Counted from the stretch's first letter, positions 8,638-33,510 are shown. The stretch: 64,000 bases of DNA from an uncultured Gammaproteobacteria bacterium (GCA_964649615.1 CAZYPW010000003.1:30132-94131), one strand, 5' to 3'. Notes: generated by a model not told the origin, from the sequence alone. Numbers and translations are program-made.

Positions 8638-9081
8638 TCACTTGACTTCCTCAACTTTACCTACATCCATTAACCAGCCTTCTTTTAAGGCTTTTTGAGT
8701 TTCACCATAAACTTTTACTTTTTTGCCTTCATATTGGGACAGATCAACTACAGATGAGGTTAAAGCCACAGGCACTGCACCTTCTCTTTCTAAAATATGG
8801 GTTCCTTCAGTATATTCAGCTGGATTTTTAGGTTGAGATTTAACTTTGATGACTCCTTCTGCAAAATCTCTAAAGGTTTTTGTATCTTGCTGAGCACTTT
8901 TAGGAGCTGTAGCTACACTAGGGACAGCGAGCCCAGATTTTCCTCCACTTCTTGCCATAATCACACCTGAAACAACACCTAAAACTAAAGCTGTACCCAC
9001 AACCAAAGAGAGAAGTTTTACAGGGTCGGAAGAGGTATCAATCAGCTTTTTGGTTATTTTCTCAACATGAGTATTTTCCAT
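8638..9081 (-). CDS. Hypothetical membrane-anchored protein (N-terminal TM, soluble C-terminal domain)
   Basis: ORF of 147 aa with hydrophobic segment LLSLVVGTALVLGVVSGVIMA. No recognisable family. In operon position between prfB and ftsE. Confidence 0.35.
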   Translation of the reverse strand: MENTHVEKITKKLIDTSSDPVKLLSLVVGTALVLGVVSGVIMARSGGKSGLAVPSVATAPKSAQQDTKTFRDFAEGVIKVKSQPKNPAEYTEGTHILEREGAVPVALTSSVVDLSQYEGKKVKVYGETQKALKEGWLMDVGKVEEVK

Positions 9082-17137: not shown

Positions 17138-18279
17138 TTAAATAAATAGGGATTGGGGATAGGAGCTACATTTTCAATAATAAAGTTTTGGGCATATAAA
17201 TAGCTGGCTATAGCAATGATCGGCAGGATTATTTTAAACTCTTTGGAAGTTAAAACTCGCTCATATGCAATTAATACAAAAGGGGTTATGGGTAAAATAT
17301 ACCTTGAGATATCCCTGTGGGCCACAAAAATGGAAGCTGTAAGATAGGTTAAGACAAAAAAAGATAATGGGTATAATTTCTTTTTCCATAAAGTAACTGC
17401 TGCTAAAAATCCTAATATAAAGGTTAAAATTATATCCTCCAGCCAAATATCTCCTACCCAGTACTGGTATTTATTAAAAACCTGAAAAGGGGGAAAGGTT
17501 AGATGAATATTATCCCCAGAGTGAAAATAAGCCCAAAAATCCTGATAGGTAAAAGAGTAAAGAAAGAATATCAAAGATAGGGCAGCAGGTATAAAGAGTA
17601 AGGGTAAACTTGTAGTGATTGTTCGAATAATCGAAAACTTATGTTTCCACAGCAGGAAAAGTGACATAGCAATAAAAAGTAGAGCAGCTGGGGGCCTGGT
17701 GATTTGTGAGAGAAAGCCAAATATGCCAAAGGCAAAAATATAAAAGAATTTTTGGGCCTGTTCAAATTTCATCATAAAATAAATGGCAGCAGTGGTGAAG
17801 AAAATAAACATTGGTTCAGAGGATCCTACACTGTGAACTATTAACCATCTGGCAGGCAGAATTAGAAATAATAAACTTAAGAATAAAGGTTGAGATGAAA
17901 GTTTAAAATCTTTTATTAAAAAATAAAAGGCAACAATAGATAATATGGTAAATAGGACAGATGCAAAAAGCATAGATTTTAAGTAGCCTAAAATGGGAGC
18001 AAAAGTGGCAATGGCTATTGAATATCCTGGAAAGTGAGAGGCAAAATATTGCGCAGGCAAATCTTGAGGCAGAGCAGCTATAGCTTGGATATTATAAAAA
18101 GTTTTGGCAATAATTATATATTCAAGCCCATCAAAATTTCTATAAATAGTATTAAATCCATTTGAAAAATTTAATCCCCAAAAGGAAGGAAGAGCTAAAA
18201 TATGCGGCAACCAAATTAGAAATGTCAGGAAAATAGCCAGGCCGGCAATTATGGTAATATCTTTTAAAGTTTTACCCAT
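17134..18279 (-). CDS. Polytopic integral membrane protein (possible GT-C-like or polymerase-like)
   Basis: 381 aa, about 10 hydrophobic segments. No recognisable motif. Confidence 0.35.
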   Translation of the reverse strand: MGKTLKDITIIAGLAIFLTFLIWLPHILALPSFWGLNFSNGFNTIYRNFDGLEYIIIAKTFYNIQAIAALPQDLPAQYFASHFPGYSIAIATFAPILGYLKSMLFASVLFTILSIVAFYFLIKDFKLSSQPLFLSLLFLILPARWLIVHSVGSSEPMFIFFTTAAIYFMMKFEQAQKFFYIFAFGIFGFLSQITRPPAALLFIAMSLFLLWKHKFSIIRTITTSLPLLFIPAALSLIFFLYSFTYQDFWAYFHSGDNIHLTFPPFQVFNKYQYWVGDIWLEDIILTFILGFLAAVTLWKKKLYPLSFFVLTYLTASIFVAHRDISRYILPITPFVLIAYERVLTSKEFKIILPIIAIASYLYAQNFIIENVAPIPNPYLFN

Positions 18280-18325
18280 CTAATTATTATAGCAGGATAT
18301 TAAGTTATGTTAAGATAGAATACGC

Positions 18326-20506
18326 ATGGACATTAAAGAATTGTCAGTTTTTTTTCCATTAGTTAATGAAGAAGGCAATGTTTCAGAAACTGTTGAGAGA
18401 GCGATAAAGGTTTTAGAAAAGTTGAAGCTAAAATATGAGATTTTGCTCATCAATGATGGTTCAAAAGATAGAACTGGCCAAATTATTGATGAACTGGCAA
18501 GCAAAAATCCTAAAATAAGAGTTATCCACCATGCTCAAAATTTAGGATATGGGGAAGCTTTAAAATCAGGTTTCTATAATGCTAAATATGAAACCATAGT
18601 TTACACAGATGGTGATGGGCAATTTGATTTCTCAGAAGTTACTAAATTTTTAGAAAGCATTAAAGAAAATGATTTAGTAATAGGATACCGCATCAAAAGG
18701 CAGGATCCATTTTTCAGAATTCTTTTTAAGAAGGGTTGGAGTTTGTCTCTTTTTACTATGTTTGGTTTAACTTTAAAAGATGTGGATTGTGGTTTTAAGA
18801 TGACCAAAAGAGCAGTTTTAGAAAAAATCCCCCATCTGGAGTCTCAAAGAGGAGCTATGATTAATGCAGAACTAGCAATTAAGGCCAAAAAATTTGGGTT
18901 TAAGGTAGGGCAGGTTGGAGTAAATCACTATCCAAGGCTTAAGGGTATACCAACTGGTGCCAGCTTAAATGTGATTATTAGGTCTTTTGTTGATTTATTT
19001 AGGCTTTGGTGGAAGCTGAAGGATCAAAAATGGTTGTTTATTGGGCTTTTATTTATACTCTTACTGGCCGCCTTTTTACGCTTTTACAAAATTGACCAAT
19101 ATATGACTTTTTTGGGAGATGAAGGCAGGGATGCCTTAATTATGAAAAAGATGCTAACGGGAGATATCCCTTTCATTGGTCCTCCCATGTCAGTTGGTAA
19201 TATTTACCTGGGTCCCCTGTATTACTATATGATTTTTATTCCGATGGCTCTATTTGGTTTAAATCCAGTCTCATCTGTAGCAATGAATGCCTTAATTGGG
19301 GTTTTAACAGTCATGATGGTTTACTATTTAGCTAAGGTTTGGTTTAGCAGGGTATCAGCGCTCACTGCTGCATTTTTATATTCTATTTCTACTGTGGCAA
19401 TTACTTATTCCAGATCATCCTGGAATCCAAACCCTTTGCCCTTTTTTTCTACCATAGTAATTTTTAGTTTATATAAGTTGCACCAAAGCAGTAATTTTAA
19501 GTGGCTTGTTTTAACAGGAATTTCATTAGGGGCAGCTCTGCAAATGCATTATTTGGGATTAATTCTTGCTCCCATTATTATCATAGCTTTATTTTTTGAG
19601 TTTATCACCAAAAGAGACCAGTTAAAAAATATAGTGTCTGGTATTGCTTTAGGGATATTTTCTTTTCTTTTGGTAATGTCTCCACTGATTGCTTTTGATT
19701 TAAAGCATGATTTTTTAAACCTCAGGGCAATTTTGGCAATTTTTGGTGAAGGTGAAGCAGTTGCTTTTAATCTTTTGTCAAACCTAGAAAAAATCCCTTC
19801 CATCTTTGGTTATAACCTGATTGGCAGGTATATAGCAGGAGAGAATATTTTTCTGGAAATAATTTTAGCTTCACTGATTATTTATGTTTTAGGAGCTAAT
19901 TTGATTAAATGGTATTTTAAAAAAATAGAAAATTATCCCTCTTTTCTTTTAACTATCTGGATTGTTGTTGGTTGTTTGGTGCTTTCTTTTGTTAAGCATG
20001 AAACTTATGACCATTATCTTAATTTTGTAAACCCGGCCCCATTTTTAGCAGTTGGGGCAGCAGCTGCTTTAATAACTGGCAGTTACAGTAGAAAATGGAT
20101 TTTAAGGACTCTTTTTGGATTTTTGATTTTAATATTAACTATCCTCAATTTACAAAAAAATCCCCTCAATTTTCCTCCTAATAATCAGCTGCAAAAAACT
20201 CAGGGGATTGCTAAATTTGTACTAGAGAAAACAGAGGGTAAAGCTTTTAATTTTGCTTTACTTTCAGAAAATAACTATGATTCTGCGTATCAATTTTATC
20301 TGGAAGAATATGGTTATCAGCCAAAAGTACTGCCATTTGAGAAAACAGCCCAGCTGTTTGTGGTTTGTGAAGATCCAATCTGCAATCCAATCTATAGCCC
20401 TAAACATGAGATAGCAGCTTTTGGGTGGGTTAAAATAGAAGAAATGTGGGAATATAAAGGGGTTAAAATCTATAAGTTAATTCATAATCCAGATCAACCA
20501 AAATGA
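18326..20506 (+). CDS. Fusion protein: N-terminal GT2 polyprenyl-phosphate sugar synthase (ArnC/DPM1-like) + C-terminal GT-C (ArnT/PMT-like) membrane glycosyltransferase
   Basis: GT2 part: ILLINDGSKDRTGQII...VYTDGDGQFD. GT-C part: FLGDEGRDALIMKKM...GPPMSVGNIYLGPLYYYM plus about 11 TM. Confidence 0.65.
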   Translation: MDIKELSVFFPLVNEEGNVSETVERAIKVLEKLKLKYEILLINDGSKDRTGQIIDELASKNPKIRVIHHAQNLGYGEALKSGFYNAKYETIVYTDGDGQFDFSEVTKFLESIKENDLVIGYRIKRQDPFFRILFKKGWSLSLFTMFGLTLKDVDCGFKMTKRAVLEKIPHLESQRGAMINAELAIKAKKFGFKVGQVGVNHYPRLKGIPTGASLNVIIRSFVDLFRLWWKLKDQKWLFIGLLFILLLAAFLRFYKIDQYMTFLGDEGRDALIMKKMLTGDIPFIGPPMSVGNIYLGPLYYYMIFIPMALFGLNPVSSVAMNALIGVLTVMMVYYLAKVWFSRVSALTAAFLYSISTVAITYSRSSWNPNPLPFFSTIVIFSLYKLHQSSNFKWLVLTGISLGAALQMHYLGLILAPIIIIALFFEFITKRDQLKNIVSGIALGIFSFLLVMSPLIAFDLKHDFLNLRAILAIFGEGEAVAFNLLSNLEKIPSIFGYNLIGRYIAGENIFLEIILASLIIYVLGANLIKWYFKKIENYPSFLLTIWIVVGCLVLSFVKHETYDHYLNFVNPAPFLAVGAAAALITGSYSRKWILRTLFGFLILILTILNLQKNPLNFPPNNQLQKTQGIAKFVLEKTEGKAFNFALLSENNYDSAYQFYLEEYGYQPKVLPFEKTAQLFVVCEDPICNPIYSPKHEIAAFGWVKIEEMWEYKGVKIYKLIHNPDQPK

Positions 20507-21246
20507 AAAACCTTCAACTATCAGTAGTGATACCTTCATATAATGAGGCAAAAAACTTAAAAAAAGGAAGTTTAGATAAAGTAGGCAATTATCTTAAAGA
20601 ACAAAAAATTGATTTTGAGGTAATAATTGTTGATGATGGTTCATCTGATTCCTCTGTGGAAATTATCAAAAAATATATTTCAAAAGTCAGAAATTTTAAA
20701 CTAATTCAAAATGCTCATGGAGGAAAAGCCATGGCTGTGATGACAGGCATGATGGAAAGTAAAGGTAATGTTATTCTATTCATAGATATGGATCAGGCCA
20801 CCCCAATTAATCAAATTGAAAAATTTATTCCCAAGTTTGAGGGTGGTTTTAACATTGTTATAGGGTCAAGGCAAGGCAGAAAAGGAGCCCCATTGATCAG
20901 AAAACTGGCAGCCTGGGGATTTTCAGTTTTAAGAGGGATAATTTTGGGATTGCCTTTTAAAGATACCCAGTGTGGGTTTAAAGCTTTTTCTTATGAAGCT
21001 GTAGAAAAATTAATTCCTAAAATTAAGCATGAATGGGGAGTGGTGCATTTTAAGGGAGGAGCAGTTAATGCAGGCTTTGATGTGGAACTTTTATATTTAG
21101 CTAAAAAATATGGGTTTAAAATTGCAGAAGTTCCTGTTGAGTGGAATTATGTAGATACAGAAAGAGTCCAGGTGATCAAAGATGCAGCTGCTGCCATCTA
21201 TGATATGTTAAGAATCAGGATCAATGATCTTTTAGGAAAATATTAA
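20503..21246 (+). CDS. GT2 glycosyltransferase (GtrB/DPM1-like polyprenyl-phosphate sugar synthase)
   Basis: LSVVIPSYNEAKNL, IIVDDGSSDSS, FIDMDQ (DxD). 247 aa soluble GT2. Confidence 0.75.
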   Translation: MKNLQLSVVIPSYNEAKNLKKGSLDKVGNYLKEQKIDFEVIIVDDGSSDSSVEIIKKYISKVRNFKLIQNAHGGKAMAVMTGMMESKGNVILFIDMDQATPINQIEKFIPKFEGGFNIVIGSRQGRKGAPLIRKLAAWGFSVLRGIILGLPFKDTQCGFKAFSYEAVEKLIPKIKHEWGVVHFKGGAVNAGFDVELLYLAKKYGFKIAEVPVEWNYVDTERVQVIKDAAAAIYDMLRIRINDLLGKY

Positions 21247-21284: not shown

Positions 21285-21824
21285 ATGAGTGATACTCAAG
21301 AAATTTGCCCTAAATGTGGTGCTCCCTTAGGAGAAGTAACAGAAACTCAAAGCGGTAAAAAGCTGCAAAGATGTTCCACTGGATCCTGGAATAAAGAAAC
21401 CAGAAAAAATGAAGGATGTGACTATGTGAAGTGGATACAAGCTGAACCACAAGAGTTAGATGAAAAATGTCCCAAGTGTGGTAATAATTTAATCCTGCAA
21501 GTTACCAGATTTGGCAAGAAGATGAAAAAATGTTCAACAGGTGGTTGGGATGCTGTTGAGAAAAAAGCCACAGGATGTGATTATGTGGAGTGGATTAACG
21601 GAACATCAGAACCCCTTGATATGGATTGTCCAACATGCGGGGAGAAACTGGTATTATTTACAACCTCTGCCGGCAAGAAAATGGAGAAGTGTTCCACATC
21701 CGGCTGGGATAGTGTTAATAGGAAACCAACAGGGTGTACTTATGTTAAATGGCTTAAATCCGGTGAAGTCCCAGCCTCAAATGCAGGTGAAGAATTCCTT
21801 CCACCCCCACCAAAAGAAGAGTAA
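21285..21824 (+). CDS. Protein made of three tandem C4 zinc-ribbon repeats (topoisomerase-I-type/YrdD-like Zn-ribbon variant)
   Basis: Three ~43-aa repeats CPxCGxxL...GKKMxKCSTxGWDxVxxKxTGCxYVxW at aa 7-49, 62-104 and 115-157. 12 Cys total. Confidence 0.55.
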   Translation: MSDTQEICPKCGAPLGEVTETQSGKKLQRCSTGSWNKETRKNEGCDYVKWIQAEPQELDEKCPKCGNNLILQVTRFGKKMKKCSTGGWDAVEKKATGCDYVEWINGTSEPLDMDCPTCGEKLVLFTTSAGKKMEKCSTSGWDSVNRKPTGCTYVKWLKSGEVPASNAGEEFLPPPPKEE

Positions 21825-21872: not shown

Positions 21873-22508
21873 ATGGATACAGTTACTGCCAATCAGAATG
21901 AAAGATTAACTGAAAGACAAAAACAAACCCTGGTGTATATTTATAGTTGCATTAGATATTCAGGATATCCACCTACCTTATCCCAGTTGCGGGAAGAACT
22001 GCAAGTTGTGTCTAATCAGGCAGTCATTGATCTTTTAAAAATTCTGGAAAATAAAAAATACATTCAAAAAGAAGAAAATTCTGCGCGTGCTCTTAAAGTA
22101 ACTCAAAAAGGGTATGAAGAACTAAATGTTTCTCCCTATGCTCCTATGGTCGGGACTACAGCCGCAGGACCGTTTATGGACACTCTAGAACAATATGGCG
22201 AGTGGAAAGAAATATCATCTGATTTATCTAAGCTTTCGGAAAAGCTTGCGCTTTTTAAAATAAAAGGGGATTCAATGACTGGAGCCGGGCTGAGTGAAGG
22301 GGATATTGTGGTTGTGCAGTATGAAATAAATGAATTCCGGAATGGGGATATTGTTTTGGCAAAAAACGATGAAGGGACAACAATAAAAAGATTTGTAAAT
22401 GTAAATGGAAAAATACACTTAGCGCCGGAAAATCCAAAATATTCAAAAATTCCGTTTACTCCAGACTTGCGTCTTATAGGAAAAGTAATCTCAAAAATTG
22501 AAGTATGA
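21873..22508 (+). CDS. lexA: LexA-like repressor (winged-HTH DNA-binding domain + S24 autopeptidase domain)
   Basis: N-term LTERQKQTLVYIYSCIRYSGYPPTLSQLREEL...AVIDLLKILENKKYI. Ala-Gly cleavage region TTAAGPF. C-terminal GDSM...K Ser/Lys dyad region (KGDSMTGAG ... TIKRF). Confidence 0.8.
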   Translation: MDTVTANQNERLTERQKQTLVYIYSCIRYSGYPPTLSQLREELQVVSNQAVIDLLKILENKKYIQKEENSARALKVTQKGYEELNVSPYAPMVGTTAAGPFMDTLEQYGEWKEISSDLSKLSEKLALFKIKGDSMTGAGLSEGDIVVVQYEINEFRNGDIVLAKNDEGTTIKRFVNVNGKIHLAPENPKYSKIPFTPDLRLIGKVISKIEV

Positions 22509-24442
22509 ACACAAAAGAAATTCTGGATAAAATATTTAAAAGCCCTGACCAAAATTATGGCCTTTTGGAATTTAGCAGCCTTCATCCGGAGGATATTTTA
22601 AATATTTTTGAAAAAGAGCCTGGAAAATATTACTTAAAGTGTTTTATCCGGAATAAAGATTTACTTGTTTGGAATGAAGAGAAACAAATTGGAGAACCTG
22701 AAGAAATAGTCAGACAACTTTGGATTCAGAAATTAATAAAAGAATATGAATATCCGCAAGATAGATTAACTGTTGAAGTTACTGTTGATTTTGGGAGGGA
22801 AGTTCATGAAAAAGCAGCAGATATTGTAGTTCTTCAGGATGATAAAGAAACTGCCTGGGTTATCATTGAAACAAAAAGTCCTGATTCAAAAGACGGACTT
22901 GAGCAAATAAAAAGTTACCTTAATGCAAAAGGCGGTCCCATTGGAGTATTAAGTGATGGAAAATCAAAAGTAATTTTATACAGGCCTTATCCGCACCAAT
23001 TTGAAAATACACTTCGGAATATTCCGCGGGCTAATCAAACCATTCAAGATGTTTTTGAATCTCGCCTTACTATAAATGATCTTGAGACTAATTTTGATTT
23101 GGTAAAGATCATTAAAGTTTTAGAAGAGTTGGTTTTGGCGGGCGCAGGTGTTGATTCATTTAATGAAATTTTCAAACTTATTTATGCAAAATTGTATGAC
23201 GAAAAGTACGCAAAGGATCGGAAAGATGAACTTTTATTCCGCCAGTCATCAGATCCGAGAATAACTTACGATAATATTAATAAACTTTTTGAGGATGCAA
23301 AAAAAGAATGGCCGGGAATGTTTTTGGCCGGGGAATCGATTCAACTTTCACCTTCTCATTTGTCGGTATGCATTGGGGAACTGGAAAAAATAAAATTATA
23401 TGATGCGAATTTAGAAATTGTAGACCAGGCATTTGAATATTTGCTTCCGGATGTTGCCAAAGGGAAAAAAGGGCAATATTTTACCCCCCGTCATGTCATA
23501 GATATGGTGGTTAAAATGCTAAATCCTAAAGAAGAAGAGTATGTGATTGATCCGGCTTCCGGATCCGGCGGGTTTTTAATCCATGCGATGCAGTGGGTTT
23601 GGGATCATGGCCTTTTGGAAAAATCCCGGGAAACAAAAATAAATTACGCGGCAACCCACATTTACGGAATAGATTTTGATGATAAGCCGGTAAAAATTTC
23701 CCGCGCTTTAATGCTTATTGCCGGAGACGGAAAATCTCATGTATTTAAATTAAACTCCTTAAACCCAGCAGAATGGAGTGGAGATGAGGGAGAAAAAGGG
23801 GTAGCAAGATATGAGTTACAGCAAAGGTTGCATGAATTTGATGACTATACAAAAGATGAGGATAATAAAAAACATTTTAATGTTTTTGATTTTGATATTT
23901 TACTAAGCAATCCCCCCTTTGCCGGCGAAATAAAAGAAAGAACACTTCTTAATGAATACGAGCTGGCAAAAAACGATAAAGGTAAACTTCGCAACAAAAT
24001 GGAAAGGCATATCCTCTTCATTGAAAGAGCGCTGAACTTGTTAAAACCCGGAGGAAGAATGGCAATAGTGCTACCTCAAGGAGTTCTCAATAATACCAAT
24101 ATGGAATACATTAGAAATTGGATTTTTGATAAAGCCAGAATTTTGGCTGTGGTTGGACTGCATGTAAATACTTTTAAACCACATACAGGTACAAAAACCT
24201 CTGTAATATTTTTGCAAAAATGGGCAGATGATGAAAAAATCCCAGATGATTATCCAATATTTATGGCGGTTTCCAAAAATAGTGGGAAAGATAACAGCGG
24301 TGATTATATGTATAAAAAAGACGCGGAAGGAAATTTTATTATGGATAGCAAAGGGCACAAAGCGGTTAATCATGATCTTAATCAAATAGCAGATTCATTT
24401 ATAGAATTTGCAAAAAAGGAAGGGTTTAGTTTTTGGAGGTAA
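22505..24442 (+). CDS. Restriction-modification A subunit: N-terminal PD-(D/E)xK HSDR_N-like nuclease domain fused to N6-adenine DNA methyltransferase (type IIB/BcgI-like; alternatively atypical type I HsdM)
   Basis: N-term D-IVVL...IIETK...LEQIKSYL...PIGVLSDGK. MTase motif I VIDPASGSGGFL, FTPRHV, motif IV LLSNPPFAGE. 645 aa (BcgI A is ~637 aa). ATGA overlap with lexA-like stop. Confidence 0.65.
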   Translation: MNTKEILDKIFKSPDQNYGLLEFSSLHPEDILNIFEKEPGKYYLKCFIRNKDLLVWNEEKQIGEPEEIVRQLWIQKLIKEYEYPQDRLTVEVTVDFGREVHEKAADIVVLQDDKETAWVIIETKSPDSKDGLEQIKSYLNAKGGPIGVLSDGKSKVILYRPYPHQFENTLRNIPRANQTIQDVFESRLTINDLETNFDLVKIIKVLEELVLAGAGVDSFNEIFKLIYAKLYDEKYAKDRKDELLFRQSSDPRITYDNINKLFEDAKKEWPGMFLAGESIQLSPSHLSVCIGELEKIKLYDANLEIVDQAFEYLLPDVAKGKKGQYFTPRHVIDMVVKMLNPKEEEYVIDPASGSGGFLIHAMQWVWDHGLLEKSRETKINYAATHIYGIDFDDKPVKISRALMLIAGDGKSHVFKLNSLNPAEWSGDEGEKGVARYELQQRLHEFDDYTKDEDNKKHFNVFDFDILLSNPPFAGEIKERTLLNEYELAKNDKGKLRNKMERHILFIERALNLLKPGGRMAIVLPQGVLNNTNMEYIRNWIFDKARILAVVGLHVNTFKPHTGTKTSVIFLQKWADDEKIPDDYPIFMAVSKNSGKDNSGDYMYKKDAEGNFIMDSKGHKAVNHDLNQIADSFIEFAKKEGFSFWR

Positions 24443-24443
24443 T

Positions 24444-24959
24444 ATGAAAAACAAGAAGGAAAAAATATACGCTTTTATAGACAGCCAGAATTTAAATCTT
24501 TCAGTAAGAAATGATATTATCCGAAAGAGGAAAACAGTATATAAAGGATGGCAGCTTGATTTTGAGCGTTTCAACGTTTATATAAAAGCAAAATACCGTG
24601 TCACTAAGTCCTTTCTATTTATCGGGTACAGAAAGGAGAATCAGAATTTGTATGATCGTTTAAATGCGGCAGGGTACGTCCTTATTTTTAAACCGACTCT
24701 TGATTCTCAGGGAAAAACAAAAGGAAATGTTGATGCAGAATTAGTTCTTCATGCCATGGATAAAATTCGGAGATATGATAAGGCTGTATTGGTAACAGGA
24801 GATGGTGACTTTCATTGTCTTGTAGAGTATTTAATCAAGAAAAGGAAATTATATAAAGTCCTTATACCCAATCAATACAGCTACTCCTCTCTTTTAAGGA
24901 AATTTAAACAATATATATCTTTTGTTAACGTATTAAAGAATAAGCTGGAGAGGAAATAA
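24444..24959 (+). CDS. NYN (LabA/Limkain/YacP-like, PIN-fold) nuclease domain protein
   Basis: IYAFIDSQNL...GNVDAELVLHAMD...AVLVTGDGDF are the acidic motifs of the NYN domain. Start set at ATG 24444 preceded by GGAGG, rather than the overlapping 24408. Confidence 0.65.
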   Translation: MKNKKEKIYAFIDSQNLNLSVRNDIIRKRKTVYKGWQLDFERFNVYIKAKYRVTKSFLFIGYRKENQNLYDRLNAAGYVLIFKPTLDSQGKTKGNVDAELVLHAMDKIRRYDKAVLVTGDGDFHCLVEYLIKKRKLYKVLIPNQYSYSSLLRKFKQYISFVNVLKNKLERK

Positions 24960-25082
24960 AGCGAGTTTGTTGCTTCGCAATAAAAAAGACAGGCATTTGC
25001 GCGGCATGAAAGCCTTTGCAGGAGCCTGTCATCGTGATTAGTAGTAGTATACGTTTATATTAAAGTAAAGTCAAGACTAACT

Positions 25083-26444
25083 ATGTCATTTTCAATAATT
25101 CAAAAATCTCAACTTGAAGGAGCGTATAGATTGGATGCGGAATATTATCAGCCGGAATACTTAGAAGTAGTCAATAAAATTTCAAAAATTCCCCACAATA
25201 TCTTAGAAAATATCTCTGAGAGCTTGTTAAGCTTCGGAGCATATTCACTTACCAGTTCTATAGTATGGCAGGAGTCTGGGATCCCATTTATCACAGCAGA
25301 AGACATCAAAGAAGGATTTATTGCTCTTGAAAACGTACGCTTTATAGATGAGAGGGCAGATGAAATTTTAAAAAAGTCTAGAGTTCATGAAGGCGAAGTG
25401 TTATTGGCTATGTCAGGTAAAGTTGGAGATACGGCTGTAGCGATTAATATTCCACCACGGCTTAATTCGAACCAAGATATAGTCAAAATTAAACTTAAAA
25501 AAAATTATTCGTCATACCTTCTCGCTGCTTTTCTGAACTCTACGTATGGAAGATTACAAATATTACGTCTCCCAGTTGGAAGCGTACAGCAACATATATT
25601 TCTTTGGCAAACTAAGTCATTATTGGTTCCAAAATTTCCGAAGAATCTCATTGAAGAAGTTGAACAGTCATATAAATTAGGGCTAGAAGAACTTGAAAAT
25701 TCAAGATTACTTTACAAACAAGCTGAAGACGTACTATTGAATGGATTGGGGCTCAAGAATTTTCAAGTTGAAGATGATTTATGTTTTGTTGTTAATCTTT
25801 CAGGTGTAAAATCTGCAAACAGAGTTGATGCTGAACATTTTCAGCCAAAATACGAAGAGTTATTAGAGAAAATTCAGCAAAAGAATACTAAAGTATTTAC
25901 TGACGTTATTAGGAATGTAACAGCAAAATTTAATCCTCTTAAAACATCAGATGAAACTTTTAAATATGTCGAACTTGCAAACATAAATTCTTCAATTGGA
26001 GTCATTGATGGATATTCAGAGATTCTAGGAAAGGAAGCACCAAGTAGAGCTAAAAGATTACTTAAAAAGGGAGATGTTATTGTATCAAGTGTTGAAGGTT
26101 CATTGGAAAAAGTCGCACTAGTAGATGGTACTCAAGAGGGGTACTTGGCCTCTACAGGATTTTTTCAGCTTAGATCAGAAGGAATATTGCCAGAAGTGCT
26201 TTTAGTTTTAGCAAAAAGTATTGTTATGCAGTGGCAATTAAAAAAACATTGCGCAGGAACCATCTTAACAGCAGTACCTAGTGAATCTTTACAGAAAATG
26301 TTTGTACCCGCAATACCAAAGGAGACTCAGCAAAAAATTGCGGAGTTGGTAAGAAAGTCGCATGAAGCCAGAAAGAAATCAAGAGAGCTTTTAGAAGAAG
26401 CAAAAAGAAAAGTTGAAGAGATGATAGAAAAGGGTAGTTCGTGA
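25083..26444 (+). CDS. hsdS: Restriction-modification specificity (S) subunit with two target-recognition domains
   Basis: Internal duplication (RLDAEYYQPEY / RVDAEHFQPKYEELL). Conserved HsdS helices LLVPKFPKNLIEEVEQ and MFVPAIPKETQQKIAELV. 453 aa. Confidence 0.75.
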   Translation: MSFSIIQKSQLEGAYRLDAEYYQPEYLEVVNKISKIPHNILENISESLLSFGAYSLTSSIVWQESGIPFITAEDIKEGFIALENVRFIDERADEILKKSRVHEGEVLLAMSGKVGDTAVAINIPPRLNSNQDIVKIKLKKNYSSYLLAAFLNSTYGRLQILRLPVGSVQQHIFLWQTKSLLVPKFPKNLIEEVEQSYKLGLEELENSRLLYKQAEDVLLNGLGLKNFQVEDDLCFVVNLSGVKSANRVDAEHFQPKYEELLEKIQQKNTKVFTDVIRNVTAKFNPLKTSDETFKYVELANINSSIGVIDGYSEILGKEAPSRAKRLLKKGDVIVSSVEGSLEKVALVDGTQEGYLASTGFFQLRSEGILPEVLLVLAKSIVMQWQLKKHCAGTILTAVPSESLQKMFVPAIPKETQQKIAELVRKSHEARKKSRELLEEAKRKVEEMIEKGSS

Positions 26445-27015: not shown

Positions 27016-28509
27016 GTGAAGCTGATTTTAAAACACAAAGTTGAAATATTAATTATTTTAAGTTTAATTAGCGTATATTTTATTCTAAGGTTGCCTAATT
27101 TAACCTTGCAGCCTATTTTTGCAGATGAGGCAATTTATATCAGATGGGCACAAGTTATGAGAGCAGAGCCCACCTTAAGGTTCCTGCCTGTTTCTGATGG
27201 CAAAACTCCCTTGTTCATGTGGACTTTAATGCCTTTACTTAAATTTATCCCTGATCCACTTTTGGCAGGAAGGCTGCTGTCTGTTTTAGTGGGTTTTTTA
27301 ACTTTGTTAGGAGTATATTTTCTTTCCAAAAAAGTGTTTGGCATACAAGCTGCTTTTTGGGCTGCTCTTTTATATGTAATTACTCCATACACTGTTTTTT
27401 TTGATAGGATGGCTTTGGTGGATTCTATGCTAGCAGGTTTTACTATATGGATAATTTATTTTGCTATCTGGCTTATTAAAAAAACTAGATTAGATATAGC
27501 TATGATTTTAGGATATTTAATAGGAGGAGGGATTTTAACTAAAACTCCTGGGATGATTAATCTGTTGTTACTGCCAATCACCCTTATAGCTGTTAAATGG
27601 AGGAGAAAGTATCCAATTTTAAAAGTAGTGATGTTTTGGACTGTTACTATCTTTGTAGCTTTAGTTATGTATAACATACTGAGGTTAGGACCCCAATTTC
27701 AGATTTTATCTTCTAGAAATACTGACTATGTTTTTTCTCCCCTGGAACTGGTTGGCAGGCCGCTAGATCCTTTTATTCCCCATATGAGAGATCTGTCTGA
27801 TTGGTTTCCCAAACTGTTTACCTGGCCTATACTTTTTTGTATAGCGATAGGCATTTTATATACCTTAATTAAGACTAATAGGCTGGGTTTAATAATCTTA
27901 CTTTGGGCAGTAGTTCCATTGCTGGTTCAGTCTGCCTTTTTAAAAACTTTTACAGCTAGATATTTACTATCTTCTATACCCCCACTTTTAATTATTGGGG
28001 GCTTTGGCATCACCAATCTTTTGCCAAAGTTCTCTGCTTTTAATAGGTTTTCCTACCTTTTAATGCTAATTGTGGTTTTGCCACTGGCTTTAAATTTTGA
28101 CTTCTTGCTTCTTACTGATCCCCAAAAGGCCCCTTTGCCTAGGGCAGAAAGAATTGGTTATTTTGAGGAGTGGACTGCCGGATATGGTTTTTTTGAGATA
28201 GCCTCTTTCCTAAAAGACCAAAGAAGATTGGGAAAAGTAGTAGTTGGAACAGAAGGTTCTTTTGGAACGCTGCCAGATGGTTTACAAATATATCTAGATA
28301 AAGAGGACATAGCAGTAATAGGCAGTACTGGAAGTATTTCTGCACAAATTAAAGGTTCAGCCAAGGATAATTTAACTTTTTTTGTGGGAAATAAATTAAG
28401 GTTAGAAAATGGCATAGATGGAGTAGAAATAATTAAAGAATACCCTAAAGCTAAACCACCAAAAAATGGCAAACAAGATGCAATTGTCTTGTTTAAAGTT
28501 TTGCCTTAA
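27016..28509 (+). CDS. GT-C glycosyltransferase, family 39/83-like (ArnT/PMT-like, polyprenyl-phosphate-sugar dependent)
   Basis: First-loop motif PIFADEAIYIRWAQVM...GKTPLFMW. About 12 TM. Confidence 0.7.
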   Translation: MKLILKHKVEILIILSLISVYFILRLPNLTLQPIFADEAIYIRWAQVMRAEPTLRFLPVSDGKTPLFMWTLMPLLKFIPDPLLAGRLLSVLVGFLTLLGVYFLSKKVFGIQAAFWAALLYVITPYTVFFDRMALVDSMLAGFTIWIIYFAIWLIKKTRLDIAMILGYLIGGGILTKTPGMINLLLLPITLIAVKWRRKYPILKVVMFWTVTIFVALVMYNILRLGPQFQILSSRNTDYVFSPLELVGRPLDPFIPHMRDLSDWFPKLFTWPILFCIAIGILYTLIKTNRLGLIILLWAVVPLLVQSAFLKTFTARYLLSSIPPLLIIGGFGITNLLPKFSAFNRFSYLLMLIVVLPLALNFDFLLLTDPQKAPLPRAERIGYFEEWTAGYGFFEIASFLKDQRRLGKVVVGTEGSFGTLPDGLQIYLDKEDIAVIGSTGSISAQIKGSAKDNLTFFVGNKLRLENGIDGVEIIKEYPKAKPPKNGKQDAIVLFKVLP

Positions 28510-28513
28510 GGAA

Positions 28514-30217
28514 ATGGATTTTTTAAAAAATAGGCCTTACAAATTTTGGCTTATCCTAACAATTATTTTTATCATGCCTACCTTTTATCAACTATTAAGG
28601 TTAGGTTTTTTTCCAATGCAGGATGACCTGCAGGCCTTTAGAGTGCATCAAATGGTTAAGTGCTTAAAAGATTTTCAAATCCCCTGCAGATGGGTTCCTG
28701 ACATGGGTTATCAATATGGCTATCCCCAGTTTAACTACTATAGCCCAACACCTTATTATTTTGGAGCTTTGCTTAATTTATTAGGTTTACAAATTATTGA
28801 TTCAGTGAAGATTTTATTTATAGCAGGATTTATTTTATCAGCAGCCTCAATGTTTGTTTTTTTAAAAGCTTTATTTAATCCTCAAATTGCCTTTGTTGGG
28901 TCAGTCTTTTATAGCTATGCCCCTATTAAAGCATCCCAAGTTTATGTCAGAGGATCTCTTAGTGAATTTTGGGCATTTATCTTTTTGCCTTTAATTTTTT
29001 GGTCAACTTTGCAGTTAATCAGATTAGGTAAAGTTAAATATCTGATTTGGTTTTCTATCTCCCTTTTTTTACTGCTGACTACTCATAATTTAACGACCTT
29101 TATTTTTTTACCAATACTTTTAGGGTGGTTTTTTTTAACTGCATTCTTAGAAAAAAAATGGCAGAATTTAACTTGGGTGGGAATGGGATTTCTTTTAGGA
29201 GCAGGATTGGCATCTTTTTATCTTTTGCCTTTAATATTTGAGAGAGATTATGTTCATCTGGAAAGTTTATTGGGAGGATATTTTGATTATAGGCAGCATT
29301 TTGTCAGTATTAAGCAGTTACTTTTTTCTAATTATTTTGGGTATGGGTCTTCTGTGTTTGGATTAAATGATGAGGTCAGTTTATCAGTGGGAATCATGCA
29401 TGGAGTTTTTGGACTGTTAGCCTTAATCTTGTCAATGCTCTTTTTTAAAAAAGATAAAAAGATCTCTCTAATAATTTGGAGCTTGTTTTTGCTAGAAACT
29501 TTAGTTTTATTTTTAATGCATCAAAGATCTTCATTTATTTGGGAAAGAATTCCTCTTTTGCACTGGCTACAATTTCCCTGGAGGTTTTTAACTATCTCTT
29601 TATTCTTGCTGACAATTTTAGGTGTAAGCAGCATTTATCTAATCAATAAAATTAATCAAAAAGCAGCCCTTTTTATAAGTTTAATATTAATTACCAGTGT
29701 CATTGTTTTACACGGCGGATTTTATAAACCCCGTGAATGGTTTAATATTTCAGATCAGGAAAAATTTTCTGGCCAGTTGTGGGAAAAACAGTTAACAATC
29801 AGTATTTTTGACTATCTTCCTATTTATGCTAAACTTCCTCCTAATAAAAAGGCTCCTTTGGAACCAGAGGTTTTAGAAGGTGATGTAAAATTTATCAGTT
29901 ACAAAAAAGGAAGCAATTTTCAAAAAGGGGTAATTGAAGTGGGAGGGGATTCTATTATTAGAGTTCCCTTATTTGATTTTCCTGGCATGGCAGTTAGGCT
30001 AAATAATCAAAAGATTATTCATAAAAATAATGATTGCAGGGGGGAGGAATATTGTTTTGGATTAATAACTTTTGCAGTTCCTCAAGGTCAGCATACCTTT
30101 GAAGTTAAACTAGAAGATACCTTTATTAGGGCATTAGGGAATATAATAAGTTTAATTAGTATTTTGGCATTGTTCTTCTTAATATTTAAAAATTATGGTT
30201 CTAAAAAGATTAATTGA
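28514..30217 (+). CDS. Polytopic membrane protein of an uncharacterised GT-C-like family (conserved KCxxDFQIPCRWVPDxGxxYGYPxFNYY loop); paralog 1 of 4
   Basis: HQMVKCLKDFQIPCRWVPDMGYQYGYPQFNYYSPTPYYF. About 13 TM, then C-terminal extracytoplasmic domain plus TM anchor. Start moved to ATG 28514 (upstream part overlaps previous gene). Confidence 0.5.
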   Translation: MDFLKNRPYKFWLILTIIFIMPTFYQLLRLGFFPMQDDLQAFRVHQMVKCLKDFQIPCRWVPDMGYQYGYPQFNYYSPTPYYFGALLNLLGLQIIDSVKILFIAGFILSAASMFVFLKALFNPQIAFVGSVFYSYAPIKASQVYVRGSLSEFWAFIFLPLIFWSTLQLIRLGKVKYLIWFSISLFLLLTTHNLTTFIFLPILLGWFFLTAFLEKKWQNLTWVGMGFLLGAGLASFYLLPLIFERDYVHLESLLGGYFDYRQHFVSIKQLLFSNYFGYGSSVFGLNDEVSLSVGIMHGVFGLLALILSMLFFKKDKKISLIIWSLFLLETLVLFLMHQRSSFIWERIPLLHWLQFPWRFLTISLFLLTILGVSSIYLINKINQKAALFISLILITSVIVLHGGFYKPREWFNISDQEKFSGQLWEKQLTISIFDYLPIYAKLPPNKKAPLEPEVLEGDVKFISYKKGSNFQKGVIEVGGDSIIRVPLFDFPGMAVRLNNQKIIHKNNDCRGEEYCFGLITFAVPQGQHTFEVKLEDTFIRALGNIISLISILALFFLIFKNYGSKKIN

Positions 30218-31862
30218 TAAATTCTGGCCACATTTAATTATTTTTATTTTATCTTTACTAGTTGCTTGGCCAATTTTTTTGCCTGGATATTTTTCCCATC
30301 ATGATGATTTGCAGGTTATGAGAGTTTTTGAGATGAGAAAATGCCTGGAGGATTTTCAGATTCCTTGTAGGTGGGTACCAGATTTAGGTTTTGGCAACGG
30401 CTATCCTTTATTTAATTACTATAATAGCCTTCCTTATTATATAGGAGCTTTAGCCAGTTTTACCCTGGGCTTTATAGGCGGGGCAAAATTATTATTCTTA
30501 ATTGCTGTAATCTTGGCTGGATTCTCCATGTATCTTTTAGCAAATAGGCTTTTTGGATTATATCCTAGCTTAGTGGCAGCTACCCTTTATATATATGCAC
30601 CATATAGAGCACTGGATATATATGTTAGAGGTGCAATTGCTGAGAGTTTTTCTTTGGCGATCATCCCGCTAGTATTTTATTTTGCCATAAGAGCCTCAAA
30701 GGAAAACTTAGTAAAAAATTATATCTTCCTGAGCCTTTCCCTGGCAGCTTTTCTAGCTAGCCATAATATTATGACCCTGCTTTTTTCACCTTTAATAGTT
30801 CTTTTTTTTATCATTATGCTTTGGGGAAAAAATTGGCAGGTAGCTAAAAAGACCCTATTTTTTATAAGTCTAGGGTTGGGGTTGTCTAGTTTTTTTATTT
30901 TGCCGGCATTTTTGGAAAAAGATTTAGTGCAGATAGATAATTTGACAAGATTAGAGCTAGATTTCAGAGCCCACTTTGTCACTTTACCTCAACTCTTTTT
31001 AGATAGAACTTGGGGTTATGGGGCTTCCTTTCCTGGAGTGGGGGACACTATTTCTTTTCAGGTAGGTTGGCCTCATTGGTTAATAGTGATTTTATCTATT
31101 CCCTCGTTAGTTTTCTTAAAAAGAAAGAACCTGAGATTATTTTGGCTCAGTTTAATGATGTTGCTATTTTTTAGTTTCCCCCTATTTATGGCTCATAACA
31201 GGTCTGCCTTTATTTGGGAACAGATTGGGATTTTGAGGTTTACCCAATTTCCCTGGAGATTTTTATCAGTGGCAATTTTTACTAGTAGCTTATTAGGTGC
31301 AATTTTAATTTATAACTTTAAAATTAGTTGGCAAAAAATCATGGTTATCATCTTAGTTCCAGTAATAATTTTGTTAAATTGGAGTTACTTTAGGCCACAT
31401 CAATTTTATCCAAATCTCACAGACCAGGAAAAGCTTTCGGGAGTACTTTGGCAGACCCAGCAAAGAGCTTCAATCCTGGACTATCTTCCTGTTACTGCTG
31501 TGGAACCTAGGGAAGCAGCCCCATCAGAACCTATTATTGTCTCAGGCCAAGCAGAAGTTAATAATTTTAAGAACAGGTCAAATAGATGGGAATTTAAAAT
31601 AAATGTTTTATCACCAACTGTTGTAGAAATGCCAGTGTTTGATTTTCCTAAGTGGCAGGTATATGTAGATGGAAAGAAGGTAGATCACTCAAATAAAAAT
31701 TACTTGGGCAGAATAAGCATCAATCTCCCTTCTGGTAATTATAAAGTGGTAGGAAAATTTGAAAATACCCCAATAAGGATTCTGGGTAACCTTGTTACCT
31801 TTGTTTCTATTGCAATTATTATATTTTTAACCTATGGGAAAATTGGAAAAATTAGTAGATAA
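30195..31862 (+). CDS. Same family, paralog 2 of 4
   Basis: FEMRKCLEDFQIPCRWVPDLGFGNGYPLFNYYNSLPYYI. Same architecture. Confidence 0.5.
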   Translation: MVLKRLIDKFWPHLIIFILSLLVAWPIFLPGYFSHHDDLQVMRVFEMRKCLEDFQIPCRWVPDLGFGNGYPLFNYYNSLPYYIGALASFTLGFIGGAKLLFLIAVILAGFSMYLLANRLFGLYPSLVAATLYIYAPYRALDIYVRGAIAESFSLAIIPLVFYFAIRASKENLVKNYIFLSLSLAAFLASHNIMTLLFSPLIVLFFIIMLWGKNWQVAKKTLFFISLGLGLSSFFILPAFLEKDLVQIDNLTRLELDFRAHFVTLPQLFLDRTWGYGASFPGVGDTISFQVGWPHWLIVILSIPSLVFLKRKNLRLFWLSLMMLLFFSFPLFMAHNRSAFIWEQIGILRFTQFPWRFLSVAIFTSSLLGAILIYNFKISWQKIMVIILVPVIILLNWSYFRPHQFYPNLTDQEKLSGVLWQTQQRASILDYLPVTAVEPREAAPSEPIIVSGQAEVNNFKNRSNRWEFKINVLSPTVVEMPVFDFPKWQVYVDGKKVDHSNKNYLGRISINLPSGNYKVVGKFENTPIRILGNLVTFVSIAIIIFLTYGKIGKISR

Positions 31863-33510
31863 ATACTGGTTTATTATCTTAATAGTTCTGTCCATTCCCG
31901 CTACTTGGGCATTATTTGTTAATGGTTACTATGGAGCTTCAGATGATATGCATCCGGCTTGGTTATATGAGCTGGATAAAACCATAAAGTTAGGACAAAT
32001 CCCTCCCAGGTTTGTACCAGATTTGAGTTTTGGATTTGGTTATCCCTTATTCAATTTTGCCTTTCCTCTGCCTTTTTATATAGCAGAGGTTTTCCATCTG
32101 TTAGGATTTTCCCTGGTTGATAGCATTAAAACAGTTTTTTTCTTAAGCATTCCTCTTTCAGCTTATTTTATGTATCTCTTTTTAAGAGAGTTTATAAGTA
32201 GAACTTTAAGTTTAGCTGGGGCAGTTCTTTATATCTATGCTCCTTACAGAGCAGTTGATATATATATCAGGGGAACAATAGGGGAGATTGTTAGTTTTAT
32301 ATTCTTACCGCTGATCTTTTTGTCTTTATTTAAGCTAAAGCATGCTTTCAACGGGAGATGGATTGGGATTGGAGGGTTTGCTCTTGCTTCCCTAGTCTTG
32401 TCGCACAATATTGCTGCTTATATGTTTTTTCCTTTTTTAATCCTATTTTTTGTATTGCATTTAATTTTTTCCTCAAAAAAATTACTATTTTTAATAAATT
32501 CTATTTTGATGGTTTTTCTAGCCCTTTTGATCAGTATTTATTTTTGGCTACCAGCACTAGTAGAAAGTAGTTTAATGAAGTATGATGCTGTTTTTAATTT
32601 TGCTGATCATTTTCCTACTATTAAACAGCTATTTACTCCCTATTGGGGGTACGGGTCTTCAGTGCCTGGGCCTTATGATGGCATGTCTTTCTTTTTAGGA
32701 ACTGTACATATTTTAATGATAGTTTTGGGTATAAGTTTATCTATCAGTTTTTGGAAAAAGTTTAATAAAAATATCAAGATATTACTAATATGGGTTTTTT
32801 TGTCTTTAAGTGCTGTCTTTTTCATCATGAACTATAGATCTTCTTTTTTATGGAGCAACATCCCTCTTCTGCCTTATTTTCAATTTCCTTGGAGATTTTT
32901 AATATTAACTACTTTTGCCATACCACTATTGATAGTAGTTTTTGATAAGTTTAAGCATAAATATAGTATTTCTTTGTTAATAATTATTATTACTTTAATT
33001 ACAGGTTGGAGTTATTTTCGGCCTCAAGATTTTCTGGGCCGCCAGGATGTTTATTATCTAAACCGCTATATTCCCACTCCAACTGCAAGTTTAGAATATT
33101 TAAAAATTCAAGAAGAATATTTACGATTACCAAAAAATACTGATAAAAGGCCGGATCGGAATTATCCTTTGGTTTTTATAGATAATGGATTAATTAAACA
33201 GGTAAGCAGGATAAATGACTTGGATGTTTTAATAAGAACGGAGGCAACTTCAGTTGCCACACTTAATTATAGTAAATATTTGTTTCCTGGTTGGGTGGCT
33301 GAAATAGATGGTCAGAAAACAGAAACTTTAGCTGGTAAACCATTTGGACAAATTACTGTGAATGTAGCTTCAGGCAGCCATACAGTTAAAATTATATTTG
33401 AGGAAACAAACTTTAAGAGATTCTTAAATGCTATCTCTTTGGTTAGTTTTTTAGTATCATTAGGATTAATCACAAACTTGTGGCCTCGAGTATTCAGACT
33501 CTTTAAGTAG
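31834..33510 (+). CDS. Same family, paralog 3 of 4 (lacks the conserved Cys pair)
   Basis: YELDKTIKLGQIPPRFVPDLSFGFGYPLFNFAFPLPFYI. Same architecture. Confidence 0.5.
   Translation: MGKLEKLVDKYWFIILIVLSIPATWALFVNGYYGASDDMHPAWLYELDKTIKLGQIPPRFVPDLSFGFGYPLFNFAFPLPFYIAEVFHLLGFSLVDSIKTVFFLSIPLSAYFMYLFLREFISRTLSLAGAVLYIYAPYRAVDIYIRGTIGEIVSFIFLPLIFLSLFKLKHAFNGRWIGIGGFALASLVLSHNIAAYMFFPFLILFFVLHLIFSSKKLLFLINSILMVFLALLISIYFWLPALVESSLMKYDAVFNFADHFPTIKQLFTPYWGYGSSVPGPYDGMSFFLGTVHILMIVLGISLSISFWKKFNKNIKILLIWVFLSLSAVFFIMNYRSSFLWSNIPLLPYFQFPWRFLILTTFAIPLLIVVFDKFKHKYSISLLIIIITLITGWSYFRPQDFLGRQDVYYLNRYIPTPTASLEYLKIQEEYLRLPKNTDKRPDRNYPLVFIDNGLIKQVSRINDLDVLIRTEATSVATLNYSKYLFPGWVAEIDGQKTETLAGKPFGQITVNVASGSHTVKIIFEETNFKRFLNAISLVSFLVSLGLITNLWPRVFRLFK

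Follow-up and report, generated by a model that had tools for sequence, protein, structure and literature searches.

A putative nuclease-small RNA cassette with a new RNA motif in a type IIB-like restriction-modification operon

What is a nuclease gene doing between the two core genes of a restriction-modification (RM) operon? The question is raised by a 64,000-nucleotide stretch of DNA from an uncultured Gammaproteobacteria bacterium (GCA_964649615.1, CAZYPW010000003.1:30132-94131; this whole stretch is called the window here), in which a gene with an NYN domain lies between a restriction-methylase gene and the gene of a specificity (S) subunit, hsdS. A first-pass annotation had taken the NYN gene for an accessory effector or processing factor of the RM system and had noted a hairpin in the spacer behind it. 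To our knowledge, the function of bacterial LabA-like NYN proteins has remained unknown since the domain was defined in 2006. Our main finding is that the NYN gene and a predicted small RNA gene, convergent with it, make up a cassette, and that the RNA represents a new motif. The cassette is akin to RNA-antidote toxin-antitoxin modules and to RNases embedded in defence operons, and a function of that kind is what its sequence would suggest. Its parts are as follows.

24444-24959, plus strand: gene for a predicted NYN (LabA-like, PIN-like fold) nuclease of 171 aa, identified by Pfam, a PDB match, AlphaFold/Foldseek and invariant acidic residues.
24960-24981, no strand assigned: 22-nt insert between the NYN stop codon and the RNA U-run, with a small GCGA...TCGC inverted repeat, identified by alignment.
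24982-25040, minus strand: putative convergent small RNA gene of about 58 nt, 5'-(U)AAUCACGAUGACAGGCUCCUGCAAAGGCUUUCAUGCCGCGCAAAUGCCUGUCUUUUUU-3', identified by covariance model R1, conservation and covariation.
25046-25074, minus strand: predicted sigma-70-type promoter of the small RNA, with -35 TTGACT (25074-25069), a 17-nt spacer and -10 TATACT (25051-25046).

From its 5' end, the RNA would consist of a conserved single-stranded tail, a three-helix hairpin and a U-run terminator. Its predicted start is at about 25039, and a generic promoter scan scored its promoter at 10/12. The spacer between the NYN and S genes, which measures 123 bp and not the 124 bp first given, folds with z=-3.1 against shuffles. 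The two 7-bp arms noticed in it, GACAGGC (24988-24994) and GCCTGTC (25024-25030), are located where the first-pass annotation had put them and form the outer helix of the small RNA. Behind the hairpin the plus strand lacks a T-run; the U-run is found on the minus strand only. What had been described as a feature of the spacer between NYN and hsdS is the body and terminator of a predicted, conserved antisense small RNA gene that accompanies NYN.

The conservation of this element was followed in a set of 81 loci, made of the window and 80 fetched loci of its closest NYN relatives in species-representative genomes (loci are cited below by their L numbers). Most of the 80 relatives are 52-63% identical to the window protein and have a patchy distribution over more than 10 phyla, including Patescibacteria, Chloroflexota, Omnitrophota, Elusimicrobia, Nitrospirota, Planctomycetota, WOR-3, Margulisiibacteriota and others. 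The closest homolog is 92% identical (P0002, loci L001-L004), and the DNA similarity between the window and L001 is limited to 24460-25051, from just within NYN to inside the spacer. L001 has the stretch AAAAAAGACAGGC...GCCTGTCATCGTGATTA with 100% identity, and L012 and L005 have it with 97%. The identity of the RNA stretch was 100, 97, 97 and 81% where that of the NYN coding DNA was 89, 73, 67 and 60% (the first three values from L001, L012 and L005), and since the spacer is more conserved than the gene that precedes it, it should hold a functional element. The 22-nt insert with its GCGA...TCGC repeat is present in L012 and absent from L001.

Nearly all loci show a common layout after or overlapping the NYN stop codon: an A-run, the hairpin, (A)TCGTGAT, about 25 AT-rich bases and TTGTCAA. 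On the minus strand this reads as TTGACA, 16-18 nt and TATAAT, followed after 6-10 nt (mode 7) by a start, the tail AAUCACGA, the hairpin and the U-run. The pattern TTGACA, 16-18 nt, TATAAT, 3-14 nt, ATCACGA was present on the minus strand in 75 of the 81 NYN loci and on the plus strand in 22, as compared with 131 of 763 random windows. Counting the covariance-model hits together with copies visibly truncated at contig ends, the RNA lies directly 3' of NYN in 80 of the 81 genes, L074 being the exception, and the most common overlap of its terminator with the NYN coding sequence is 2 nt (26/71). In some homologs (L014, L045, L052, L064, L073, L083 and others) the NYN frame continues through the RNA gene, giving protein tails that end in ...HRD, from CATCGTGAT, and the overlap between RNA and coding sequence extends to 40-70 nt or more.

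Three structural classes of the RNA (A, B and C) could be distinguished, which have in common the tail, the outer helix and, at the apex, a stem capped by a U-N-Y-G-U loop, and the class follows the protein clade in 60 of 71 cases. RNAalifold gave no consensus structure over all 71 RNAs jointly because the three classes are out of register, and this was resolved by treating them class by class. In class A (37 sequences in a plain MAFFT alignment), 90.8% of the cells were paired versus 76.3% after shuffling and 50-63% in slid-partner controls, and there were 60 double-change cells versus 15.8 in the shuffles. The corresponding values for class B (19 sequences) were 94.7% versus 82.0% and 38-54%, with 31 double-change cells versus 12.3. 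None of the shuffles reached the observed pairing or double-change values (0/500 for class A and 0/500 for class B). Compensatory changes were seen at 7/7 outer-helix pairs in class A and at 6/7 apical pairs in class B. Read on the minus strand, the helices contain 16 G-U pairs against 5 A-C mismatches, which favours this strand as the RNA strand. Promoter pattern, U-run and G-U excess agree in marking the minus strand as the predicted transcribed strand.

A covariance model built from class A, R1, found the RNA in the 64-kb window at 24983-25040 (minus strand) with 62 bits and E=6e-12, as the sole strong hit; a weak match at 47574-47608 (E=0.37), restricted to the tail and U-run, was taken as chance. 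Searched against 983 kb of NYN loci, R1 gave 57 hits at E<1, all of them at NYN 3' ends save for one weak hit in L066 (E=0.48) about 100 nt further downstream. There was no real hit in 45 control loci that were NYN-free or truncated. The set searched with them, 330 kb in all, also included both viral NYN loci, and these carry the RNA. Rfam 15 yielded no relevant hit at E<=10 on either strand of the window spacer and no match at the NYN 3' ends of loci with RNA classes A, B and C; no description of an NYN gene linked to an antisense or small RNA was found in the literature searched. A peptide encoded in the RNA, starting at an AUG in the 5' tail, was discarded as a candidate: it is not conserved, and classes B and C have no AUG. 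The predicted small RNA is a well-supported new motif, absent from Rfam.

Concerning the protein partner, the open reading frame at 24444-24959 has 171 codons and its ATG lies 5 nt past a GGAGG located in the last codons of the upstream gene. Its product matches PF01936 of Pfam with 58.4 bits (gathering cut-off 24.2, E=1.5e-15), residues 8-159 being aligned to profile positions 2-143 of 145, and PDB entry 2qip, a LabA-like NYN protein, with E=7.6e-8. The AlphaFold model reached a mean predicted local distance difference test (pLDDT) value of 91.1, and the best solved folds in Foldseek were 2qip, with template modelling (TM) scores of 0.68/0.72, and the MARF1 NYN domain, with TM scores of 0.58-0.68. 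The motifs FIDSQNL, GNVDAELV and TGDGDF, on which the gene had originally been called, are present, and D13, D97, E99, D120 and D122 are invariant among 28 homologs and in register with the 2qip motifs. Remote homology and structure prediction thus agree with the original call of an NYN-domain gene, with a PIN-like fold and conserved Asp residues, and the protein is a predicted NYN/PIN-like nuclease with an intact putative active site. The family label LabA/YacP held for its first half, through 2qip, but membership in YacP is unsupported because NYN_YacP/Rae1 (PF05991) was absent from the Pfam matches at E<=0.01; the motif after the first Asp is FIDSQN and not GYN.

Among the PADLOC profiles, HEC-09 gave a weak partial match to the NYN protein (E=0.0043, 14.7 bits) and PrrC gave no hit; NYN was the sole Pfam domain, with no ABC-ATPase or anticodon-nuclease domain. 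The protein represents a separate subfamily of stand-alone NYN proteins, which measure about 170-180 aa, are tightly conserved and have the RNA as an obligate neighbour. In stand-alone cassettes a TATAAT-like box is often found only 6-10 nt before the NYN ATG (L016, L021, L039, L040, L046, L051 and L056), a hint that NYN mRNAs have no leader or a very short one where the gene is uncoupled from an upstream gene.

The predicted NYN and RNA genes travel together in a cassette of about 0.6 kb with sharp boundaries. No conserved protein partner was found beside NYN, the immediate neighbours of the 81 cassettes sharing no family. Eight of the 81 loci are embedded between DNA-modification components and one more is adjacent to them, over five kinds of such systems; NYN is oriented like its host genes and in most cases directly adjoins the one upstream. 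The embedded cassettes occur in type I operons as M-NYN-...-S-R (L001, L075 and L080), in the type IIB-like operon of the window, in a type III operon as Mod-NYN-Res (L028), in DISARM-like operons between a DrmD-like SNF2 gene and a type IIG methylase gene (L061 and L068), and between a 496-aa gene of unassigned family, overlapping the NYN start, and a type IIG enzyme gene (L017). In the adjacent locus, L026, a large methylase-like gene lies one gene upstream of NYN. This embedding is far above that of random intergenic insertion, though it concerns a minority of the loci, and to that extent the first-pass view of NYN as a non-random neighbour is upheld.

The classical type I operon of L001 reads HsdM, NYN, a second NYN, HsdS, Abi_alpha and HsdR, and its two tandem, divergent cassettes carry different RNA classes. 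In this locus the last 45 nt or so of hsdM are duplicated before the second NYN gene (7955-8003 versus 8800-8856), which suggests that the first NYN cassette came by recombination within hsdM-NYN junctions. At other loci a tmRNA gene (L056, 8617-8962) or a tRNA-Gln gene (L041, 5902-5975; L050, 1062-1135) immediately adjoins the promoter of the small RNA. Integration at such genes was considered and rejected as a rule, as it applies to only about 5 of 60 loci, and no convincing flanking repeats or target duplications were seen around the cassette.

How, then, should the cassette be understood? The reading that we favour, to which its sequence features would give an even chance, is that NYN and its convergent RNA of about 58 nt form an autonomous toxin-antitoxin or abortive-infection cassette, housed in a cargo slot between the RM and S genes of a LexA-controlled type IIB-like operon. 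Going further, we tentatively suggest that such cassettes are RNA-antidote systems of a new class, their PIN-like RNase being checked by a single-copy RNA that it would recognise by sequence; the class would be widespread in Patescibacteria and other uncultured phyla, and RM and DISARM operons would have captured it repeatedly as a second line of defence akin to PrrC. Several traits of the cassette are like those of toxin-antitoxin systems: a small, predicted PIN-like nuclease with an intact putative active site, a patchy spread across phyla, the tandem L001 cassettes, the tracking of protein clade by RNA class and the lack of a conserved neighbour. We infer an RNase activity and toxicity for the protein, an antidote role for the RNA and a defence role for the pair; the product of 24444-24959 would be the effector or toxin of the cassette.

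The mechanism could be pictured as follows. NYN would be a metal-dependent endoribonuclease restrained by an abundant, short-lived RNA. The RNA might bind the NYN protein directly as a pseudo-substrate, as in type III toxin-antitoxin systems, or it might pair with the 3' end of a read-through NYN mRNA, as in type I systems. Since there is no plus-strand terminator, NYN transcripts should run through the RNA gene, and a 58-bp duplex could form. If transcription collapsed, through phage takeover or loss of the island that carries the operon, the RNA would decay first and the freed NYN would cut cellular or phage RNA. Direct inhibition of the protein by the RNA appears slightly favoured over antisense control because the sequences of tail and loop have been kept across phyla, a constraint that antisense pairing would not impose, and because no complementarity in trans was found between the RNA and the NYN translation start (mean z ~0).

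The lack of such complementarity also weighs against a toxin-antitoxin cassette as such, and so do a number of other observations. About 90% of the 81 cassettes have housekeeping or unrelated genes as neighbours (SecA, tRNA synthetases, YchF, CTP synthase), which would also fit a housekeeping role, and the NYN protein is unusually well conserved for a toxin. With an overlap of usually 2 nt with the coding sequence, a classical type I mechanism is not evident; the RNA region has no tandem repeats, so the RNA is not a classical type III antitoxin either. Viral contigs contributed 2 relatives in 2.9 million, plasmids only distant Azospirillum hits of 31% identity and sequenced phages none, and this scarcity means that there is no mobile-element signature beyond the boundaries of the cassette itself. 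HEC-09, a distant relative and the sole NYN candidate tested in one preprint survey, protected against none of the phages tried there (bioRxiv 10.1101/2024.01.29.577857). The case for toxicity or defence is, finally, an inferential one.

The housekeeping neighbours lead to the alternative that fares best, although we hold it to be unlikely: NYN would be an RNA-processing enzyme of tRNA or rRNA maturation or decay, its antisense RNA would be autoregulatory, and its location in an RM operon would be incidental. The high conservation of both protein and RNA sequence would be expected of such an enzyme, and a role in tRNA or rRNA processing has been proposed earlier for bacterial NYN proteins (cited in PMC5499597). 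A housekeeping gene, however, would hardly lack any conserved neighbour or synteny, end in discrete cassette edges with near-identical copies in unrelated contexts, or occur as tandem divergent copies as in L001. Nor does it explain why embedding in defence operons recurs far above the expectation for housekeeping genes, or why the identity across phyla stays at 52-63% in a patchy set of genomes.

The same cassette edges, where homology stops precisely, at the start of NYN on one side and at the promoter of the small RNA on the other, could be read as the mark of a selfish mobile element. In this view NYN would be a homing-type nuclease that helps a unit of 0.6 kb to spread into the junctions between genes, and the RNA or hairpin would serve mobility or insulation from host transcription. 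The precise fit of the cassette between co-oriented genes, often overlapping the upstream stop codon, agrees with this, as do the duplicated hsdM end beside the second L001 cassette and the few copies next to tmRNA or tRNA genes. But the cassette has no flanking direct or inverted repeats and no linked recombinase, its insertion sites have no shared sequence, and NYN domains of known activity cut RNA (PMC5499597; MARF1, in the context of bioRxiv 10.1101/2024.01.29.577857). We regard a selfish element as improbable and retain the toxin-antitoxin or abortive-infection cassette as the favoured interpretation.

Whether NYN could instead be dedicated to the RM system depends on the operon around it, whose other genes, all outside the cassette, are these.

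21873-22508, plus strand: gene for a LexA-like S24 repressor (Pfam and NCBIfam lexA).
22505-24442, plus strand: gene for the restriction-methylase (RM) subunit, whose N-terminal HSDR_N_2 domain, of PD-(D/E)XK type, is followed by an N6_Mtase domain (Pfam).
25083-26444, plus strand: gene for the S subunit, 453 aa (Pfam Methylase_S).

NYN lies between the RM and S genes, as the first-pass annotation had it, and the label BcgI-like given there to the host genes is reasonable, as the best PDB relative of the RM subunit is the type IIB enzyme RM.BsaXI (E=4.9e-29), above all type I M subunits. A D...ExK motif (ADIVV...IIETK) can be read in the RM subunit sequence. Several Specificity_I models of PADLOC match the S subunit in two separate stretches, consistent with two target-recognition domains, and in about 30 related loci an S gene accompanies the M homolog. 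By its predicted domains the host operon is type IIB-like (BsaXI/BcgI-like), with a nuclease-methylase subunit and a separate S gene. Membership in the methylation-associated defence system MADS was rejected for the RM genes, which scored 319.6 bits versus 720 for MAD2 and 143.7 versus 400 for MAD5 (NCBIfam), with no other mad genes nearby. The last 4 nt of the LexA-like gene are shared with the start of the RM gene, and tblastn detected the gene upstream of M in 20 related loci; its repressor may be an SOS-linked or C-protein-like controller of the RM system. Across the family this S24 gene is kept directly upstream of the RM gene and overlaps it (L091-L105, L123, L124 and L130-L135).

All RM homologs terminate in ...TTTTGG AGG TAA, the final pair of sense codons providing GGAGG as a ribosome-binding site (24430-24444 in the window), and the similarity among RM relatives ends exactly at the RM stop codon (alignment A9). 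The shared 3' end and the abrupt loss of similarity indicate a fixed docking point that supplies a ribosome-binding site for the next gene, and NYN is predicted to be translated from this site built into the end of the RM gene. The host RM family thus offers a clearly defined cargo slot, with its left edge at the RM stop codon and the ribosome-binding site in the last RM codons.

What occupies this slot varies. Homologs of the RM gene were found in 41 metagenomic loci at 40-85% identity, and none of these carries NYN (0/41). Among about 36 informative relatives of the RM system a single one has it, L133, with an RM gene 93% identical to that of the window followed directly by an NYN gene (2209-2463) that is 49% identical to ours; the contig ends before the 3' end of this NYN gene, so that the RNA region falls outside it. 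Besides the window, L133 is a second type IIB-like operon with an NYN gene in it. Together with L132 and L134 it makes up the three closest RM relatives; the slot of L132 (RM 92% identical) holds a Bro-N-like gene and that of L134 (84%) a 157-aa gene of no assigned family. In L117 and L119-L122 the RM-S junction is empty, and elsewhere it contains DUF6119, a ClpP-like gene with a 313-aa gene, or several open reading frames without a Pfam match. The commonest occupant in the more distant relatives is a family of 170-200 aa without a Pfam match, present in 10 loci (L106-L110, L113-L115, L118 and L129), whose conserved motif RCNL(F/I/M)H resembles the HEPN-type R-x4-H. The RM-S junction is a cargo hotspot in which NYN is one of many interchangeable, though recurrent, occupants, and its contents are exchanged more rapidly than the genes on either side diverge. 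In relatives, translation of the cargo gene is coupled to that of S. The window cassette instead places 123 nt and a convergent promoter before hsdS, and by this arrangement it may lower or uncouple S expression.

The base composition of the window bears on how these genes arrived. The observed/expected ratio of CpG is 0.305 for the whole window and 0.07-0.3 in many of its kilobase windows, and rises to 0.5-1.15 in a block at about 22-27 kb, a sharp island against the strong CpG depletion of the rest of the genome. By gene, it is 0.77 for the LexA-like gene, 0.87 for RM, 0.92 for NYN, 0.67 for S and 0.54 for a redoxin gene, so NYN does share the CpG-enriched composition of the flanking RM genes that had been ascribed to it. 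These values suggest that an island of the LexA-like, RM, NYN, S and redoxin genes was recently acquired as one block. Just upstream of the island, 21285-21824 encodes a 179-aa protein with three topoisomerase-type C4 zinc ribbon repeats and has a low, host-like CpG ratio of 0.26. The flanks of the island (15953-21246 and 27016-33510) are long runs of glycosyltransferase genes and genes for large multi-pass membrane proteins, as is typical of a Patescibacteria chromosome of the Microgenomates type.

The common composition, the tight coupling of the NYN start to the end of the RM gene and the recurrence of NYN behind a methylase gene and before S in three type I loci and in L133 could all speak for the role first ascribed to NYN, that of a subunit, effector or RNA-processing factor acquired and selected with this RM system. 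Such a dedicated accessory is nevertheless decidedly improbable. NYN and RM genes mostly occur apart: about 90% of the NYN cassettes have no RM neighbour, and the metagenomic RM relatives, all without NYN, either have RM and S directly adjacent, in several cases, or carry unrelated cargo. That NYN is common without RM genes, and these RM genes without NYN, is what the first-pass annotation itself had named as refuting its view; by this test NYN is no dedicated part of the RM system. The window and L133 have near-identical RM operons, but their NYN genes are only 49% identical and so were acquired separately, and the RM subunit already has a nuclease domain of its own, of the PD-(D/E)XK type.

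That the hairpin is a mere terminator or insulator between NYN and hsdS, with no functional RNA, is very improbable: it is a stable hairpin in an intergenic spacer, but it has no T-run behind it on the plus strand, its loop and tail are conserved across phyla, a consensus promoter stands at a fixed distance on the minus strand and its internal helices covary.

If the cassette is compared with known systems, the nearest parallel in position is PrrC of EcoprrI, the archetype of genes in type I RM operons in the 'guilt-by-embedding' study of Payne et al. (2024 preprint, bioRxiv 10.1101/2024.01.29.577857). As with PrrC and RloC, a predicted RNase gene lies between the genes of DNA-modification subunits, in the same orientation and co-transcribed with them, and the cargo of the slot varies in relatives. 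Yet NYN has neither the ABC-ATPase nor the anticodon-nuclease domain, and while PrrC is almost always embedded in RM operons, NYN is mostly found outside them. Since NYN would bring its own RNA partner, it need not be restrained by the RM complex, unlike PrrC. In the host operon, the pairing of a bifunctional nuclease-methylase subunit with a separate S subunit is that of type IIB systems such as BsaXI and BcgI; the conserved LexA-like regulator upstream and the cargo slot between the genes set it apart.

The NYN protein shares domain family, fold and acidic active site with LabA-like NYN proteins (COG1432; PDB 2qip) and with HEC-09 and MARF1-like proteins. It differs from these in having no OST-HTH or other fused domain and in its obligate RNA neighbour, and its match to HEC-09 is weak. 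This obligate, sequence-conserved RNA partner gives a concrete handle on LabA-like NYN function, as an RNA that the protein may bind, cleave or be inhibited by.

With type I toxin-antitoxin systems (TxpA/RatA, BsrG/SR4, Fst RNA I/RNA II and, with a nuclease toxin, RalR/RalA; PMC4041452) the cassette has in common a convergent small antisense RNA, which has a strong promoter and stops at an intrinsic terminator where the protein gene has its 3' end. However, NYN is a soluble nuclease fold of 171 aa and not a small hydrophobic or membrane peptide, the RNA is cis-antisense to the region just 3' of the stop codon, with a coding overlap of usually 2 nt, and the primary sequence of the RNA is conserved across phyla, which antisense pairing would not need. 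Type III systems (ToxIN, CptIN and TenpIN) also combine an endoribonuclease with a structured RNA, which here too may bind the protein, and some of them act in abortive infection. Their antitoxins are upstream tandem repeats processed by the toxin, whereas the NYN RNA is single-copy, downstream and convergent, and the NYN fold differs from the Kid/MazF-like fold of ToxN. Should the cassette prove to be a toxin-antitoxin or defence module, it would provide a defence candidate for bacteria of the candidate phyla radiation (CPR), where few are known, and its architecture of RNase and RNA would be unlike that of both type I and type III systems.

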